A stretch of 63,869 nt of DNA, filler included, from Licmophora abbreviata (Eukaryota), in the NCBI GenBank assembly GCA_900291995.1. It is 10 parts of 10 records of this genome, joined end to end, with 100 filler letters (N's around TTAATTAATTAA, not from the genome) between each part and the next. Parts side by side here need not be neighbours in the genome. Positions count along the whole stretch, not along the records: positions 11,523 to 19,009 come from OLMU01001967.1; 9 more parts are not named here. One strand, written 5' to 3'. The notes beneath the pieces are model-generated. The model was given only the letters and a program-made list of their open reading frames with translations, did no database searches and was not told the origin of the DNA. The position numbers were made by a program, and so were the translations under genes. Shown in pieces: positions 12,599 to 21,378 of this stretch (position 1 is its first letter; every line of letters begins with the position of its first letter).

Positions 12599-15500
12599 TC
12601 AAGAAGAGTGCAAATGATTCTTTGGTTCTGATTCTTCCTTACTTCCACGTTGTCTGGTCAAAACCGCGGTAAAGGAACGGTTCGTGAGGCGGGCTGCGGC
12701 AACCACCACAAAGACTAAGGTTGTCGCGATCCAACTTAAGTACCACTGACTCTCTGTAATCAGCACAATCACACTCAAAATCCACAGAACAATCTGCATG
12801 GGTGTACCTATGATGAGGAAATCTTTGTACTGTTAAAACATGAAAGGGGGCTGTGAGATCAACGGGACTCCAAAATTCCGTGCAGTTTATTGTTCCCCCT
12901 TCTTACCTTGTATCCTCCTGGACCGTAGATCATCAAGTTGGTCGTGTACCCAAAGGGTGACATAAAACTTGCTGACGCACCAAGCATGACGCAGTAGCTC
13001 ATCAAGGTCACGTCTGTCCCCGTCTTCTCGGCAGCATCAATGGCGATGGGGAATATCAGCGCCGCAGCAGCGTTGTTCGTGACGACGTTGCTGATGAGAA
13101 AAGTAGCCAAATAGACAGCACCGAACAGCCCAGCGTCTATGTTGAATCCAAGAGAAGGTGATAGTGTGGGTCAGAGTTTCCATGCTGGACACGGGATTTC
13201 TCCGCACGTCCATGGACTTACCTCCGATTCCCAGAGCTTCCCCGACATCCGTAAGGAATTGCGCAATGGCATCTGCGATTCCAGAGTTGGTTAGCGCCGT
13301 ACCAATTCCAAAAGCGCACGCAATGGTGACGAAGATTTCCCAGTTCACCGCTTGACGAGCCTCCTGTTCTGACATGACTCCAAGTACTACCATGAGGATT
13401 GCTGCGACGAGACCGCAAACCAGAAGAGAAGCAACTCCGGCCGTAAATGCAATCAACATTGCCGCCGCAATGATCAGAGCAGGAATGAGGTACCGGAGCC
13501 GGGGAGGGGCAGAGTCTTCAACTTCAGCAAGTAGAGCAAAGGAGCGATCGTGATCTCCAGTTCTTTGGATGAACGTAGGGCCAGCTTCGAGAAGGAGAAC
13601 GTCACCACCTTGGAGCTTGATTCGTCCAGGATGATCGTGAATCCGCTGACCTTCTCGATGTACCGCGATGACGGCGGCGCCATAGCGCGTTCGGAAATGA
13701 GCTTCTTTTACAGTCTTGCCCGCAAGAGGCCCTTTTCTGGCAACCACAGCCTGGACGAGCCGTCGATCGTATACTTTATCTTCAATCTTATCAACTTCTT
13801 CACTCTGATAGGACTTCAATCCCGGAATCTTACGCAGGTCTCCAACAGCTGAAGCAGAACCAGCAAACCAAAGCACGTCACCGTCTTTCAGGGGGTCTTC
13901 AGGATCGATGGCTACGAAGGTCGGTTCTGTCGTCTGTAGAGTCCCATCGACGCTGCCGGCAGCACTCGCTGATATATCGGACGGAGAGAGAATCTGCACC
14001 CTGGTCTTACGTTCGCCGTCCGGGCGTTCCACCGGTCTCTCAATGCTCACGAGGAATACCCCTGGAAGCTTCCTTATTCCCGCCTGTCCCGCAGTTTTGT
14101 TTGCGAACTGAGAGTTGGGCGCAACTTCCATGGCAGTAAGAAACTCTCTCGCCCCCACATCTCTAGATGCTGACTGCGTCTCGTCTGGAAAAGCTACTCT
14201 GAGGTCTTTCCACACTGCTTCCATGGCTTCCACGTCGACGAGGGCTGTATCATCCTATGATTCAAAGACGGGAGTATATGAGATAAGAACTAAACCATAG
14301 AGCTTGCATTTGCAACGATTACGTACCACATGGTCAAGTGCCTCGTCGCTTTCGAGAGACCGGGCCTCGACATCATCGTCGTTTTCGTCGTCCGATCCCC
14401 CAATGAAGAATCCATTTTCCATATCATCCTCAGTGCTTCGGGAAGTTCGGGGCACTTCTTCTGATTCTGTGTAGTCATCGAGTTTAGTGTCTGAGACTGA
14501 AAAGCGTTTGGTCACCATCTTCACGAGAGATGAAACTGAGCTAGTTCGAGAGGGTATTTCCGATGCGGCGGACTCCGCTTGTTTGCGATAAAAGTCTTCT
14601 GGTGGACGCGTGAGTAAGGGCGAACCTTCCCCCGCTTGTAGAACAAGGACATCGCCTGCCTCAAAGCGAACTTGAGACAGGGCAGTCACTGTGTTGTTTC
14701 CTCCCCTCTGGACTGCAACGATTGCTGCTTTGTATGTTTCGCGGAAATCCACTTCACCTGCAGTGCTACCAATCAGACGTGACGATTTCGTGACAACAGC
14801 CCGAATGACTTTAAGTCCTCTCGTCTTCACGGCCTGAATTCCACTGTCGTTCTCGAACAGAGCATTCAGAACAGACCAAACCTCCTCCTCATCTAGCAGG
14901 TCGCCATCCAAGCACTCGCAGCGCCAGATTGAAACCGACCTTTCATCGACCACCGCAGCCTCAGTGTGCCGCAACTGGAGATTAAGACGGAGCAAGCCTT
15001 TCGATATATCCAGCAAGAGACCAGGGCGATCGCGGGTATTGACACCCACGAGGACCAGGTGCTGCTTGTTAAGGTGCTCAGTGGTGACTACAATTTTGGG
15101 TGGGTCAGATCCATGTAGCCCCATAGACTGCTGTCGATCCGTCGTTGTGTCGCCTGTAGTATCACGGATCACGTCTTCAAGGAGTTCAAGCGGAAAGCCT
15201 GTCAGTCTGGTACACGAGAACGAAACGAGGGTGTACCTTTCGACTCACCTGTCAATCGATTTATGATTCGCAAACGCTCCGCCTGATCTGCCTGCACCAG
15301 AGATTCCTTGGTGATTCCGACTTCGCATGGTACGTCATTGACGTCTTCGCACTCGTTCTCCGCCACGCTCGCCAGTGGTCCCGTACTCGCTACAAGTTGC
15401 GGTACAGAAGGAGTATCTGCCGTGTCATCCGCGAATTGAACTGTCCTATCTGTCGTACCCTCCTCCGCCTCGTCACTGTGATCTTCCTCATTTTCCGGGA

Positions 15501-16646
15501 CCGTGGGAGGCGTGCCACTTATCGTATCTTCTACTTCATTCGTCACAACTTCTAAACCATGTTCTTCGCAAAACTCGCCAAAGCCCTCCACCAGCCCGGT
15601 GAAGTATAAAACGTCGCCAACATTCAAGACAAAGTCTTGTCCAACAGCCCGATGGACGTTTCCCGTTGCAGCACGATGGACGCTCACTAAAAAGAGACCT
15701 CCTGTGTCTCGAAGTCCACTTCGTTTGACGGATCGTCCAGCCGCGGGCGACCATTGCGTGAGCCTTGCTCCAAGCAGAAGCTCGTCCCCATCCAGGGGAA
15801 TGACACCATCCTTGTCAGAGGAGCGTCGCTTGCCTCCTGGCAACAAGAATGGAGATGCCACAAGAATATATGCGACTCCCGCAATAGCAATAGGCACTCC
15901 AAACTTTCCCAGATCGAATAACCCAATACTGACAGCATCATCGTCTGGAAAGCGGTCGTCCAAGAGACCGACTACGACCAGATTGGTGGACGTGCCAATC
16001 AAGGTACAAGTGCCACCGAGAATACTGGCAAAACTGAGCGGGATCAAGAGTTGCTGTGCATTCTTGCGAGTGCTCCGAGCCCATTTTTGGACAATCGGGA
16101 TCATGACAGCGACGACTGGGGTGTTGTTCAGGAAAGCCGAAACAGCGGCAATGGGGACCATGAGCCGAAGTTGCGCGCCTGCTGTAGTCGCAGGCGATCC
16201 CAAGAGCTTGCCCATGTACCAATCGAGTGCTCCAGTAACAGAGATACCTTCCGCGACAACAAACAGAATCTATGCAAGCAGACCAAGTATGAGGGAAAAC
16301 ATGAGAAAACTTCGAACAGTACACTCATTCGAAACAGATCGTGCACATGACATACCATGACCGTCAGAAGACCTTCATTACTAAATCCTTCGAGTCCTTC
16401 AGACACACTGATGATTCCCGAAGCCATACAAAGCGTCAGAGCTGTTAGCATGACAGCATCCGCACCGACACGATCCGATAGCAGTGCGATGAACATGTAG
16501 AGAAGGACAAAGCACATGTAGACGACCTCCCATGTCTCGGTTTTTTCTGTGTCCTCCAAGCGACGAGGCATCTGGACGGGACACGGGCACATGAGGTCCT
16601 CTTCATTGTGAAAGGGACGATGCCATACAGATTCCTCGCCTCTCAT
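12599..16646 (-). CDS. SLC13-family anion transporter with TrkA-C (RCK_C) domains, SLT/SAC1-like Na+/sulfate symporter, about 6 exons
   Basis: GFSNEGLLTV, SAFLNNTPVVA, PLSFASILGGTCTLIGTSTNLVV, repeated TrkA-C units (LFLVSVHR, AAIVAVQR, GAAVIAVHR), VVTNNAAAALIFPIA, ASASFMSPFGYTTNLMIYGPGGY. Confidence 0.92.
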
Positions 16647-17006
16647 GGTTTAGTAAAGATAAGACAGCGTAGACAGCTGAAAACCGTTCAAACTTCAAGA
16701 CCTCTCTCGACTTCGCCTGAATTCTCCGTTTTTCGCCGTCAAGAAGCCCTTTTTCTCTCTTTCTTTCGCTTTTCTGATTAACTTGCCTATTTACTGTGGC
16801 ACTTGACGACGTGCTTTAGCTTCTCAAGTGCTTTGAGTAGTCAGGAGAGGGCTCTGTTCGTTGCTGCGTTGAGGTGATGTCGAGAAAATGCAAAATGCTG
16901 TCCGTTCAAAATGCGCGCTCATCATCACAAAAAAGGAAACGCAACGTTCGTTCAATGAAGCGCGCAGGAAGGCACGCAAAGACCGCGCGACAAGCGGGAA
17001 TGGATG

Positions 17007-17264: not shown

Positions 17265-18983
17265 ATGGCGCGCACGACATGCGTCTATGACGACCCGTCG
17301 TTGGCGTCGACCGAGTCGAAGCACTGGCGCTCCCTCGATCATCAGCCAGGAGACGAGGTCATCCGTAGTCTCGAGGAATTGGTAGAACAGTTCCGTACGC
17401 TTGTTCTGAAATACCATCAGCAAGAAGCTGGCGACAACCAGGCCAACGGACGCACTGTCGCCCTTTGGAGCTGTATCTTCGGTTTCTGTGAATCTTTGGC
17501 GACATCCAAGAAGCCTGAAAGACGTTTCAGAATCTTCCCCATTCCCATTGGTGCCCTTCTGAGGCTTGTCCAAGATGAGTTCTGTTCTTGCCTCGACAGT
17601 CTCGCGGTGGAACGTGGAGACACGCCCCATCGACAGGCCGTGCGATCCGTGTCGAATTGGGTTTGGGCGAATGTGGCATCAAAGTCCAATGTCAAAGATG
17701 AGCTTCATGCCAACAGTCTATATGTTTGTCTTCGCGGTAAACAAGTTGATCAAAAAAGCCTGGATTGTTTTGGAGCTGCTCTGTGTACGGTGATTGGAAT
17801 GCAATGCTTGGGCTATGGATCGATGCTTGCTCTCAGTGAAGACCATGCTTATGAGCTGCACATGTCTGATCACGGAGATGATTACGCAACATGCGAAGTG
17901 GCTGTTCCTGGAAACACCCAATTGACAAAGAGCAAGCGTGGACGTGAAATACATGAGACCTTCCGGGACAAGCCAAAACTATCCGCTGCCACGAGTTGGT
18001 TGTACATGTGGCACTCTCAAGTGCAGTGTCAGTCTGTTCATGAGCTTCTTGCCGCTGCACTCGCCAACATGAACTGTGTCGTTGAAGCAACGAAGAAAGT
18101 ACAACTTTACAGTGGACCTCTGTTCGATTTAAAGCGCAGCCTTCTGTGGATTATGTATCAGGAACACGGTATAACTGATTTTCCATATGCTTTGATGGAG
18201 CTAGGCGACTGCGAAGAGCACCGTCCGTCCGAACAAGGGCAAACCTGGGTTCAGCCAGCCGAGCTTGGAGGGACACCGTGCCTCAAAATGGAAGCGCTTT
18301 ACCACGAAGCTGTCGATATTTCACGAGAGCGCTTTAAGGATGGACAGGTGTACCCATACTGCTACATGGGAAACTATCACAAGGATGCTGGTCAGGAAGA
18401 GGAGTACAGACTTGTTGAAGCACTTCGGTGCTACGCACAGGCTAGTCGCGTGGCTAGCGGCTACTTATATGACTGGAGTGACTCGTTACAGCTTACAAAA
18501 GTCATGGTGAAACTTTCCGAGGTGATTCGAGGGGAAATTTTGACAGATGAGAATGCCGGGAAGCAATGGAAAGACGAAGCGTGTCAAATCGCAGCGGGCA
18601 CGTGGCTCGTTGCTTTCTTTGACTCCTTACTACTATGGGAAGAGCGTACAGAAATTTCGTTCCTTCCTATTCTTACTCCTACCCACAGAACAGGTATTAG
18701 CAAGCTTGTTGAGCTCCTCCCTCACTCTGTGCGTCTAAGTATCGTGGCCAGAATGGCCGCTTCAAGTGACGAGAACGACGCTTCGATCATTCGCGGTAAA
18801 CCCATCACGAGCGCCGCTGACTTGTGCTTTTTCACGAGGCCCCGAAGTCGTCGATTGTTTCGAGCTGGATTATTAGTAGGCGCTATGAAGCGAAGTAAGT
18901 GTTCTATTGGGGACATGGAGCTCGCCATGGTAGTGGAGTCTGATGATGGCTGTGGTCGAACCAAGCGAAGTCGGAGGCGTTAA
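17265..18983 (+). CDS. MEN1: Menin homolog, 572 aa, intronless
   Basis: Colinear menin blocks: VSNWVW, KDELHANSLY, LDCFGAA, LALSEDHAY, SWLYM, LLWIMY, FPYALMELGDCEE, LYHEAV, VYPYCYMGNYH, EALRCYAQA...YLY, FFDSLLLWEE...PIL, and a basic C-terminal NLS-like tail. Confidence 0.88.
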   Translation: MARTTCVYDDPSLASTESKHWRSLDHQPGDEVIRSLEELVEQFRTLVLKYHQQEAGDNQANGRTVALWSCIFGFCESLATSKKPERRFRIFPIPIGALLRLVQDEFCSCLDSLAVERGDTPHRQAVRSVSNWVWANVASKSNVKDELHANSLYVCLRGKQVDQKSLDCFGAALCTVIGMQCLGYGSMLALSEDHAYELHMSDHGDDYATCEVAVPGNTQLTKSKRGREIHETFRDKPKLSAATSWLYMWHSQVQCQSVHELLAAALANMNCVVEATKKVQLYSGPLFDLKRSLLWIMYQEHGITDFPYALMELGDCEEHRPSEQGQTWVQPAELGGTPCLKMEALYHEAVDISRERFKDGQVYPYCYMGNYHKDAGQEEEYRLVEALRCYAQASRVASGYLYDWSDSLQLTKVMVKLSEVIRGEILTDENAGKQWKDEACQIAAGTWLVAFFDSLLLWEERTEISFLPILTPTHRTGISKLVELLPHSVRLSIVARMAASSDENDASIIRGKPITSAADLCFFTRPRSRRLFRAGLLVGAMKRSKCSIGDMELAMVVESDDGCGRTKRSRRR

Positions 18984-19443
18984 CACGCATTGCAGTAGTA
19001 ACGAGTCTTNNNNNNNNNNNNNNNNNNNNNNNNNNNNNNNNNNNNNNNNNNNNTTAATTAATTAANNNNNNNNNNNNNNNNNNNNNNNNNNNNNNNNNNN
19101 NNNNNNNNNGTACACTGCCTGGTACCAGGTACACTAGCTAGGTACCACCAGCACAAGGCCTACACAAAGAGACCTCTTTCTGTTTGACGAGTACTTTTAG
19201 ACGACCAGGTGCCGGTAAATCGGTAATGCCTTTCTAGGAACCCTGTCGGCATCATGCTTGCTAGTCTACCGGTGGCAGAGGTATTGACTCTGAGAATGTT
19301 CCACGTACTGGTAGACTACGAGTAGCTCTATTGTAATGATTGTTTAACAGTTAAGATCGGGTGTGTCAGTCATCGTGTCGACACTTCGAGCTCTGGGAGC
19401 GGGAAAACGTGTACAGGCAAAACTCAAAATTCAAAATTCGAAA

Positions 19444-21378
19444 ATGCCGCGATCGGTCATTCTCGTCAGACCCACACACAGCCATTGTAAACTGCGGGGA
19501 ATGATGAGGCGGCATTATGGCATGTTATCGTCGCGAGCTGCGGCGCAGCGCCGTGTAGCACCCGTTCGGAGGTCTATGATCGGCACTCCCCGGGCTCAGC
19601 GTCGTTACTCGCTGTCTTGTATGGCATTTTTCGGATCGATCATTTTTCTCTCGGCTCTGCTACTGATGACGCTGCATTGGGTCGCTCAAAGTATCGCTTC
19701 TGGGAATACTACCAGAGCTAGTAGCAGTGACCCCTTGCCATTGTTAAAGGAGTCAGTATCAATGGAACACTCTACTGGATTGAAGTCCATCGACGCTTTG
19801 CGAAACGAGTTTTACCATCGCTACGGTGGTAAGGAACAAGCAGAGACATTTCTTGACAAGTCGATTCAGCTCTACGGTGACTTGGACGTGACTGCAGGCC
19901 GACTGCTACGAGCCAAGGTACACCACAATGCGACGTTTACAGTGGCCTTTGGAGGATACTCGGTCACGGTTGGGCGCGGGAACCACTTCCACCAGTCCTT
20001 TCCGTTCGTCACAGAGCGCTTGTTGCGAGGGCCACTCAAAGATACCTTGGGTATCGACTTGGTAGTTCGGAATGCCGCCATTGGAGGTATTCCTAGCTTC
20101 CCGTATGGATTCTGCATGCCACATTTCCTTGGAGTCGACGCCGATGTCATTAGCTGGGATTATGGTATGAACGAAGGCGGGGGAGCAAGTATTCTAGAGA
20201 GTTATGTCAGACATGGCCTTTCGCAGCTTCCGAAGCGTCCCATGCTCATCATGATGGACACAAACGCCGCTCGATCAAAACTTCTTCAGGACTACCACGA
20301 CCAGAATCTGTTACCCGATGTCATTCGCGTCGCCAAAGGAAAGGAAGTTATTGACAAGTCAATGCTAGACATGTCTGACGAGAAAAAGCCGGAAGGACTG
20401 AGAGAGTGGGATGAATTTGGGGCTCCCAAATCATGTCCGGGACGAAGTAGCTGGCATCCGAAGAAGCAAGAACATGAGTTCATCGGCTGGATGCTGGCAA
20501 TGCACCTGCTCAAAGCTGTCGAACGTGCTCATGAAATTATCCAAGAAGACGAGTCGTGGGAGGCGCATCACGCTATGGAGCTTCCTCTCCTGCCGTTTCC
20601 CCCTCTGCTTAGCAAAGACCCTCCATCTAATCCCAAGGAAGCTATGGAGCTACTATACGGTCATGAGGATGGACGAATGGGGGATATTTCGTGTCGCACA
20701 TCTTTCTTACCAGCTGTAGATCACGACAAGGCGCTTCCGTCTGTCGTCGTTTCGGGGATGGCAGAGGCAGCCAAGTCGTTGGATATAATGGAAGAGCGAA
20801 GCGATGAACTATATCAACAAGGCTGGGTCTCGGATGTCAGCAAGGTCGAGCGTGATACCAAGAAGAAGGTAGAACGGTGCGGTGGGCTGGGCTATATTGA
20901 CATGAAGGTCGCTCTGTACGGAATTCCTGAGAGCGGGGAGTTGCAGCTATGGCTCCCATTCGAGGGCACAGCACCTCCGGATACTGGGATAGACGATGCG
21001 CGGCAATGGTTTGATGATTTGATAGTGTGCGAAGCCAATGAGAAGCGAAAAGACGAAGCTTGTCAGCTGGACTCAGATGTCACATACGTGGTCGGAGGCA
21101 TAGAAGTGCCATCCACGAGAATCACGCACATTGATGGCGCTGGTGTCTATTTGAATCGTAAGACATGCGTACACGTCGGTGTCCCCGAGGGTGCAAAGAT
21201 TTCAAGATTGGGTGAGTTGCCGGGAGATCCATTCACTCTGGAAGAAAAACGGCAGCTAGCCGGTTGGAACGCAAGCGATCAGGACGTGGGTCTTCTGGTC
21301 TATTTCACCGCACAATCACGTGTGTCTCGAGCAAATGGAGCATGCTGCATCTCTCACATAATATGGGAACAGCCGTAA
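19444..21378 (+). CDS. Type II membrane SGNH-hydrolase-fold protein (paralog 1)
   Basis: N-terminal TM; FGGYSVTVGRGN (block I), NAAIGG (II), WDYGMNE (III), SSWHP (V). Start may instead be 19501. Confidence 0.75.
   Translation: MPRSVILVRPTHSHCKLRGMMRRHYGMLSSRAAAQRRVAPVRRSMIGTPRAQRRYSLSCMAFFGSIIFLSALLLMTLHWVAQSIASGNTTRASSSDPLPLLKESVSMEHSTGLKSIDALRNEFYHRYGGKEQAETFLDKSIQLYGDLDVTAGRLLRAKVHHNATFTVAFGGYSVTVGRGNHFHQSFPFVTERLLRGPLKDTLGIDLVVRNAAIGGIPSFPYGFCMPHFLGVDADVISWDYGMNEGGGASILESYVRHGLSQLPKRPMLIMMDTNAARSKLLQDYHDQNLLPDVIRVAKGKEVIDKSMLDMSDEKKPEGLREWDEFGAPKSCPGRSSWHPKKQEHEFIGWMLAMHLLKAVERAHEIIQEDESWEAHHAMELPLLPFPPLLSKDPPSNPKEAMELLYGHEDGRMGDISCRTSFLPAVDHDKALPSVVVSGMAEAAKSLDIMEERSDELYQQGWVSDVSKVERDTKKKVERCGGLGYIDMKVALYGIPESGELQLWLPFEGTAPPDTGIDDARQWFDDLIVCEANEKRKDEACQLDSDVTYVVGGIEVPSTRITHIDGAGVYLNRKTCVHVGVPEGAKISRLGELPGDPFTLEEKRQLAGWNASDQDVGLLVYFTAQSRVSRANGACCISHIIWEQP

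Follow-up and report, generated by a model that had tools for sequence, protein, structure and literature searches.

The window, by which we mean the whole 63,869-nucleotide stretch of Licmophora abbreviata DNA that was analysed, encodes a protein that is best explained as the diatom orthologue of menin in its ancestral, Cys-bearing state, and we put at about 0.6 the probability that this diatom menin works in the nucleus as a thiol hydrolase or acyltransferase, with a peptide bound in its central cavity as the substrate. Human menin, a tumour suppressor and leukaemia drug target, is treated as a non-enzyme scaffold, and the central cavity is the site that it uses for MLL and JunD.

An overview of the gene and its features is given in Table 1. 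The reading frame contains no internal stop, and the gene is intronless and single-copy, with a single menin match across the 29 Mb of its own genome. The protein matches the Pfam Menin family (PF05053) with an E value of 9.8e-38 and 130.4 bits (the curated cut-off is 23.6), the Nematostella menin of PDB 3RE2 with 6.6e-29, and human menin, by sequence, with about 1e-22. An AlphaFold2 model of the whole protein, built from 108 diatom-type sequences, has a pLDDT of 93.8 and superimposes on 3RE2 with Z 32 over 423 residues (rmsd 2.9 A, 27% identity), with the N-terminal domain, thumb, TPR palm, and fingers together in one fold (model residues 30–555 on 3RE2 residues 7–475); Foldseek also pairs the model with human menin (E 3e-17), and TPR matches are found at model residues 257–375. 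The named relatives among the best 120 of 217 matches are all diatoms, including Thalassiosira, Skeletonema, Seminavis, Nitzschia and Amphora among others, and three homologs carry transcriptome (MMETSP) names. The basic C-terminal end is common to the consensus, with K567 in 90% or more, and is suggestive of a nuclear location; human menin has a nuclear localisation signal at its C-terminus (PMC13256885, accessible sections).

Table 1. Coordinates of the menin gene and of its predicted domains and key residues (positions are those of the window).
Feature	Coordinates	Strand	Remarks
Menin gene (P0001)	17265..18983	+	One open frame, ATG at 17265 to stop at 18983, 572 aa
Transglutaminase-like 'thumb' domain	17616..18089	+	Residues 118–275 as cut for folding
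His148	17706..17708	+	Human His139; upstream of the nucleophile, conserved across the family
Cys168	TGT 17766..17768	+	Predicted nucleophile, at the start of helix 168–181; Ser154 in human menin
His194	CAT 17844..17846	+	Predicted general base; human His181; directly before strand 195–200
Glu211	GAA 17895..17897	+	Predicted third triad residue; human Glu195; directly after strand 207–210
TPR-like 'palm' helices	18036..18650	+	Residues 258–462, form the central cavity; helices in the model
C-terminal basic patch	18957..18980	+	Probable nuclear localisation signal, from sequence

To the left of the menin gene, and transcribed away from it, is a divergent, multi-exon gene for a CitMHS/SLC13-like transporter with TrkA_C domains (13037–16650, leftwards). 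To the right there is an N stretch (19010–19109, with a short AT-only word mid-way) that begins 27 bases past the menin stop, followed by a rightwards frame of 676 codons (19348–21378) with no Pfam match at E values up to 1; by eye, its motifs resemble those of an SGNH-type esterase with an N-terminal anchor. Neither the transporter nor the 676-codon frame gives a clue to menin function.

The first-pass annotation proposed that Cys168, His194 and Glu211 sit at the catalytic positions of a transglutaminase-like fold. The codons at 17766, 17844 and 17895 lie in the sequence contexts that it quoted, and the secondary structure of the model, the fold of the domain and its structural neighbours agree in placing the predicted triad there. 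Transglutaminase-like triads are defined by a Cys on a helix with a His and an acid on successive strands (PMC3495828, accessible part), and the three residues occupy these canonical positions in the model. Folded alone, the thumb has a pLDDT of 86.5, with its core helix at residues 51–64 of the domain model. Compared with 48,161 chains, it finds menin first (Z 10.4), followed by LapG (6.5), a Salmonella NAT (5.7), TglA (5.6) and GdmF (5.5), and further down by factor XIII (4.7), PNGase (4.2), protein glutaminase and vasohibin. To judge by their titles, transglutaminase- or papain-fold proteins make up most of the 49 rows that follow menin, among them NAT3 of B. cereus (PDB 4DMO), whose title states a Cys-His-Glu triad. 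Individually these scores are modest, as Z values of 4–6.5 fall in the range that the search tool calls common, and the weight rests on the agreement among the rows.

The Cys-His and His-acid spacings, 26 and 17 residues in menin, are close to the 27 and 17 of a PNGase-like protein of the same genome. Sequence profiles give no significant link to transglutaminase-like enzymes. The Pfam transglutaminase families do not match the window menin at E values up to 1, and HHalign gives the menin alignment and this PNGase-like protein a probability of 0.6%. The trimmed menin core matches three single transglutaminase-like proteins with E values of 0.14, 0.032 and 0.019 (probabilities under 3%), and the HMMER scores against three such proteins are equalled by 131, 37 and 2 of 300 shuffles. 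A forced alignment to the PNGase-like protein puts Cys over Cys and Asp-His over Asp-His; being non-significant, it is excluded from the support.

Menin thus shares its core fold and its Cys, His and acid order with LapG, the NATs (including 4DMO), PNGase, protein glutaminase and vasohibin, but differs from them in having only 8–15% structural identity, Z scores of 4–6.5 and no significant sequence match, and in menin the site is roofed by an additional TPR palm, which encloses a peptide cavity. A 2023 survey places menin and the transglutaminase-like enzymes in the same cluster III (PMC10318531). Other eukaryotic families of this fold, CCDC135/DRC7, CEP76 and CC2D2A, mix Cys, Ser and dead members (PMC3495828, accessible part); these are ciliary, have other domain partners, and are not menin by Pfam or structure. 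The L. abbreviata assembly also contains a transglutaminase-core gene (L002; G000:C1080:2815-3111, leftwards) that reads as bacterial, on a contig that is possibly a contaminant.

In an alignment of 121 diatom-type sequences (the query and the best 120 of 217 matches, 33–55% identical), Cys168, His194 and Glu211 are each present in 120/120 non-gap rows. However, 37 of the 517 well-filled columns are invariant, one of them a further Cys (C255, human C230) that is as invariant as Cys168 and is retained in most Ser-type menins, so invariance alone has no power to single out the triad. The His-x-Trp template invoked in the first-pass annotation does not hold for diatoms, in which the motif is His-x-Tyr (Y196 in 120/120). 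In a mixed alignment the third triad residue is Glu, except that two flatworms and one deep sequence have Asp, and His148 is found in every non-gap row of this alignment as well as in 119/119 non-gap diatom-type rows. Conserved residues close to Cys168 also include Asp167, Asp193, His199 (117/120) and Cys210 (115/120), the last two being diatom-specific.

The distribution of the Cys across the family supports its being ancestral in menins, with the vertebrate Ser derived. The alignment column holds Cys in all 128 diatom-type sequences, most of which were recruited by likeness to a Cys-bearing query. A search without a word index over 1.84 billion representatives gave 322 proteins; among the 150 matches listed, 80 cover the site, with 54 Cys, 22 Ser, two Ala, one Pro and one Thr (two rows being scored by eye), and the remaining 70 do not span it. 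Among the matches listed, each of the 26 rows without Cys falls in a group with named animals, and every deep-branching sequence that covers the site has Cys, including P0163, P0187, P0203, P0217, P0231 and P0376. Named Cys-type menins are those of Nematostella, the tunicate Phallusia, the leech Helobdella, the mite Leptotrombidium, a pseudoscorpion and Drosophila ananassae. A group of 120 matches listed has Cys in 49/49 named arthropods; Ser is present in 55/55 named fish among the matches listed, and in opossum, and the 16 other rows of the 120 comprise nine Ser and seven Cys. Ser-type menins also occur in Schistosoma, Spirometra, Tubulanus, Symsagittifera and krill, with Thr in Macrostomum, Ala in Halotydeus and Pro in Artemia.

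Nematostella menin shares with the window protein the whole fold, the Cys, the Asp-His and the Glu, and differs in its His-x-Trp and in an animal-type loop after the Glu; its Cys bears out the statement in the first-pass annotation that some invertebrate menins carry this residue. The conservation of Cys in menins outside animals, proposed there as a check, is seen in all scorable diatom-type and deep-branching sequences. Its further suggestion that human menin is the derived form stands in that the vertebrate Ser appears derived, and fails in so far as the loss is not peculiar to humans, having occurred some 7–9 times in animals; a loss in humans alone is rejected on this count. We likewise reject the Cys as a peculiarity of the Licmophora genome, given its presence in 128/128 diatom-type sequences and in many animals.

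Named members of the family are confined, among the matches listed, to diatoms and animals, with a few deep branches between. Pattern scans, which reach fairly close relatives only, gave 87 matches in 185,579 prokaryotic genomes and eight in viral contigs, none confirmed as menin; a search with nine deep sequences returned two proteins, and the ESM Atlas yielded only menin clusters, at 0.86, with bacterial leads under 0.85. The distribution would fit a transfer of the gene into diatoms as well as an old inheritance followed by many losses. One deep-branching Cys-type menin, P0187 (713 aa), has a C-terminal PHD finger (residues 667–712, Pfam E 2.4e-8); this fusion could tie the Cys form to chromatin reading, although as a single record it could also be a misassembly.

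Several patterns emerge from comparing how the site has changed in the two groups. First, a 32-row tree, which is a quick one with long branches and two trait columns left out, needs at least seven changes at the Cys site, places Phallusia (Cys) as sister to the vertebrates (Ser) with support of 97, and rejects a single non-Cys clade (p-AU 0.006). Secondly, on larger FastTree trees the 128 diatom-type sequences show no losses over a tree length of 32.8, in contrast to nine among 154 animal-side sequences over a Cys-state length of 17.6 (binomial P 7.7e-5, or 0.005 if only five losses are counted); this test presumes the same structural context of the site in diatoms and animals, and packing may differ. 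Thirdly, the diatom core has eight columns with a Cys majority; six of them change 4–17 times, and C168 and C255 never do. Because animals have replaced Cys with Ser, Ala, Pro or Thr about 7–9 times, the fold evidently tolerates other residues, and that diatoms keep the Cys all the same argues more strongly than anything else for a working thiol.

The same losses also count for an alternative that we consider less likely, in which diatom menin is a non-catalytic scaffold with a relic triad that binds a chromatin partner as animal menin does; the His and Glu would be structural or pocket-lining and the Cys fixed by packing at the start of its helix. The animal losses have come without loss of the His or acid, both being retained even where Ala, Pro or Thr has taken the place of the nucleophile, and so their conservation needs no catalysis and is not independent evidence for it. 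Moreover, C255 and 24 other columns of the diatom core are as unchanged as C168 (25/303 columns). What this alternative explains poorly is the absence of both Ser, a single base change away, and Ala from all 128 diatom-type sequences, when animals accept either residue at the site.

Further evidence on both sides comes from the peptide pocket. Phe9 of MLL is held by Leu177 and Ala182 of human menin, in a pocket where the inhibitor MI-2 touches Ser155, Ser178, His181, Phe238 and Cys241; of the other MLL residues, Arg12 is bound by Glu359 and Glu363, and Pro13 is clamped by Tyr319 and Tyr323 (PMC8022399, accessible sections). Since the triad His and the residue after the nucleophile line this pocket, the peptide site adjoins the triad. 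The pocket was mapped on an alignment of 89 rows (30 diatom-type, 24 arthropod, 14 vertebrate and 21 other), with human positions above about 310 mapped on a fish sequence. Diatoms keep the Leu, Ser, His, Ala and both Tyr residues (Tyr363 and Tyr367 corresponding to human Tyr319 and Tyr323), and the retained Pro13 clamp favours a scaffold. However, the two Glu residues of the Arg12 pocket are absent, Glu359 being replaced by Gln409 (111/121) and Glu363 by His, Val or Thr at diatom position 413; this lowers the likelihood that diatom menin binds MLL as human menin does, and does not affect its membership of the family. A diatom-specific Glu312 (human Asn282) is present in 121/121 sequences; Gln409 is likewise specific to diatoms.

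A scaffold role also finds some encouragement in the MLL/Trx-like gene of the same genome (L007:1153-6722, G000:C446), which encodes PWWP, PHD, bromo, extended PHD, FYRN, FYRC and SET domains, and in the PHD finger of P0187; the gene is only suggestive of MLL/Trx binding by menin. Its N-terminal coding frames lack an Arg/Lys-Phe-Pro word, the menin-binding motif of MLL, and this counts against such binding. There is a second FYRN gene on C967. Diatom MLL-like genes are listed without mention of menin in the accessible part of PMC3145265. Fly Mnn1 is treated as a Trx complex subunit (PMC11554255, accessible part), and as a Drosophila menin (D. ananassae) has the Cys, the residue and a scaffold role can coexist.

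Human menin (PDB 3U84 and 4GPQ) shares with the diatom protein His181, Glu195, the Leu-Ser-Glu-Asp-His motif, Tyr319, Tyr323 and the basic C-terminus, but has Ser154 for Cys168, Ser155 for Phe169 and Phe238 for Ala264, in addition to the Arg12-pocket residues noted above. The LDSSG that the first-pass annotation gave for the human site is matched by two Ser and a Gly after Asp in the human alignment row. Ser155 and Phe238 are present in 14/14 vertebrates and in none of the 30 diatom-type or 24 arthropod rows, which have Phe at human position 155 and mostly Ala at 238, and from the alignment the vertebrate pair looks like a compensating swap. Five human positions, 154, 155, 228, 238 and 241, changed together in vertebrates (Cys to Ser, Phe to Ser, Val to Met, Ala to Phe, and Ser/Ala/Gly to Cys), and krill has an independent Ser-Ser at 154–155.

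A non-turnover thiol, with Cys168 acting as a redox or electrophile switch, forming a stable covalent adduct or binding metal with the nearby His and acids, seems improbable: the conservation is specific to a thiol, His148, His199, Cys210, Asp167 and Asp193 are close by, and fly menin mutants are stress-sensitive (PMC2987805, accessible part), but a Cys at the exact catalytic position of the fold with both partners is more simply read as a nucleophile, and two of the neighbours, His199 and Cys210, are confined to diatoms and fall short of full invariance even there.

In the enzymatic reading that we favour, a peptide segment of a nuclear protein would bind in the central cavity, whose wall includes the catalytic His, probably not in the manner in which animal menin holds MLL. 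Cys168, activated by His194 and Glu211, would attack an amide or thioester to give an acyl-enzyme, which water or an amine would then resolve. We rank a site-specific peptidase or deamidase above an acyltransferase, the cavity being a peptide pocket. In animals the binding role may have become essential and the Cys been lost repeatedly, vertebrate menin being one such loss. More tentatively, and at clearly less than even odds, menin may be ancestrally an active nuclear cysteine peptidase or deamidase whose activity persists in diatoms, cnidarians, tunicates and most arthropods, Drosophila among them; the MLL, JunD and inhibitor pocket would then be a repurposed substrate site, and vertebrate inactivation would have come with the Phe/Ser and Ala/Phe remodelling of the pocket floor.

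Parts of this idea have precedents. The accessible sections of PMC3495828 remark on the Ser in menin, and there and in those of PMC10318531 human menin, with its His and Glu, is proposed as a possible Ser enzyme; the Ser adjoins the two remaining triad residues in 3U84 (PMC10318531). One sentence of this 2023 survey states that some menins "retain full catalytic triad", and the novelty of triad retention is limited accordingly. Menin is covered as structure only in the accessible parts of PMC13256885, PMC8911756 and PMC3328827. Within the literature covered, which takes in few subscription papers, neither diatom menin nor the repeated loss of the Cys is the subject of any paper that we found, and no activity is reported there for any menin, Cys-type included.

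What seems to be new here is a non-animal, triad-retaining menin together with the pattern of Cys loss. Being single-copy and intronless, with the strongest measured constraint on the Cys and part of the MLL pocket missing, the diatom protein lends itself to a clean test. Should Cys-type menins prove to be enzymes, theirs would be the first biochemical activity for the menin family, the human drug pocket would be explained as an old substrate site, and an active site would set the fly and cnidarian menin models apart from human menin. The contrast between diatoms and animals at the Cys opens a long-standing question about a major drug target to direct testing.
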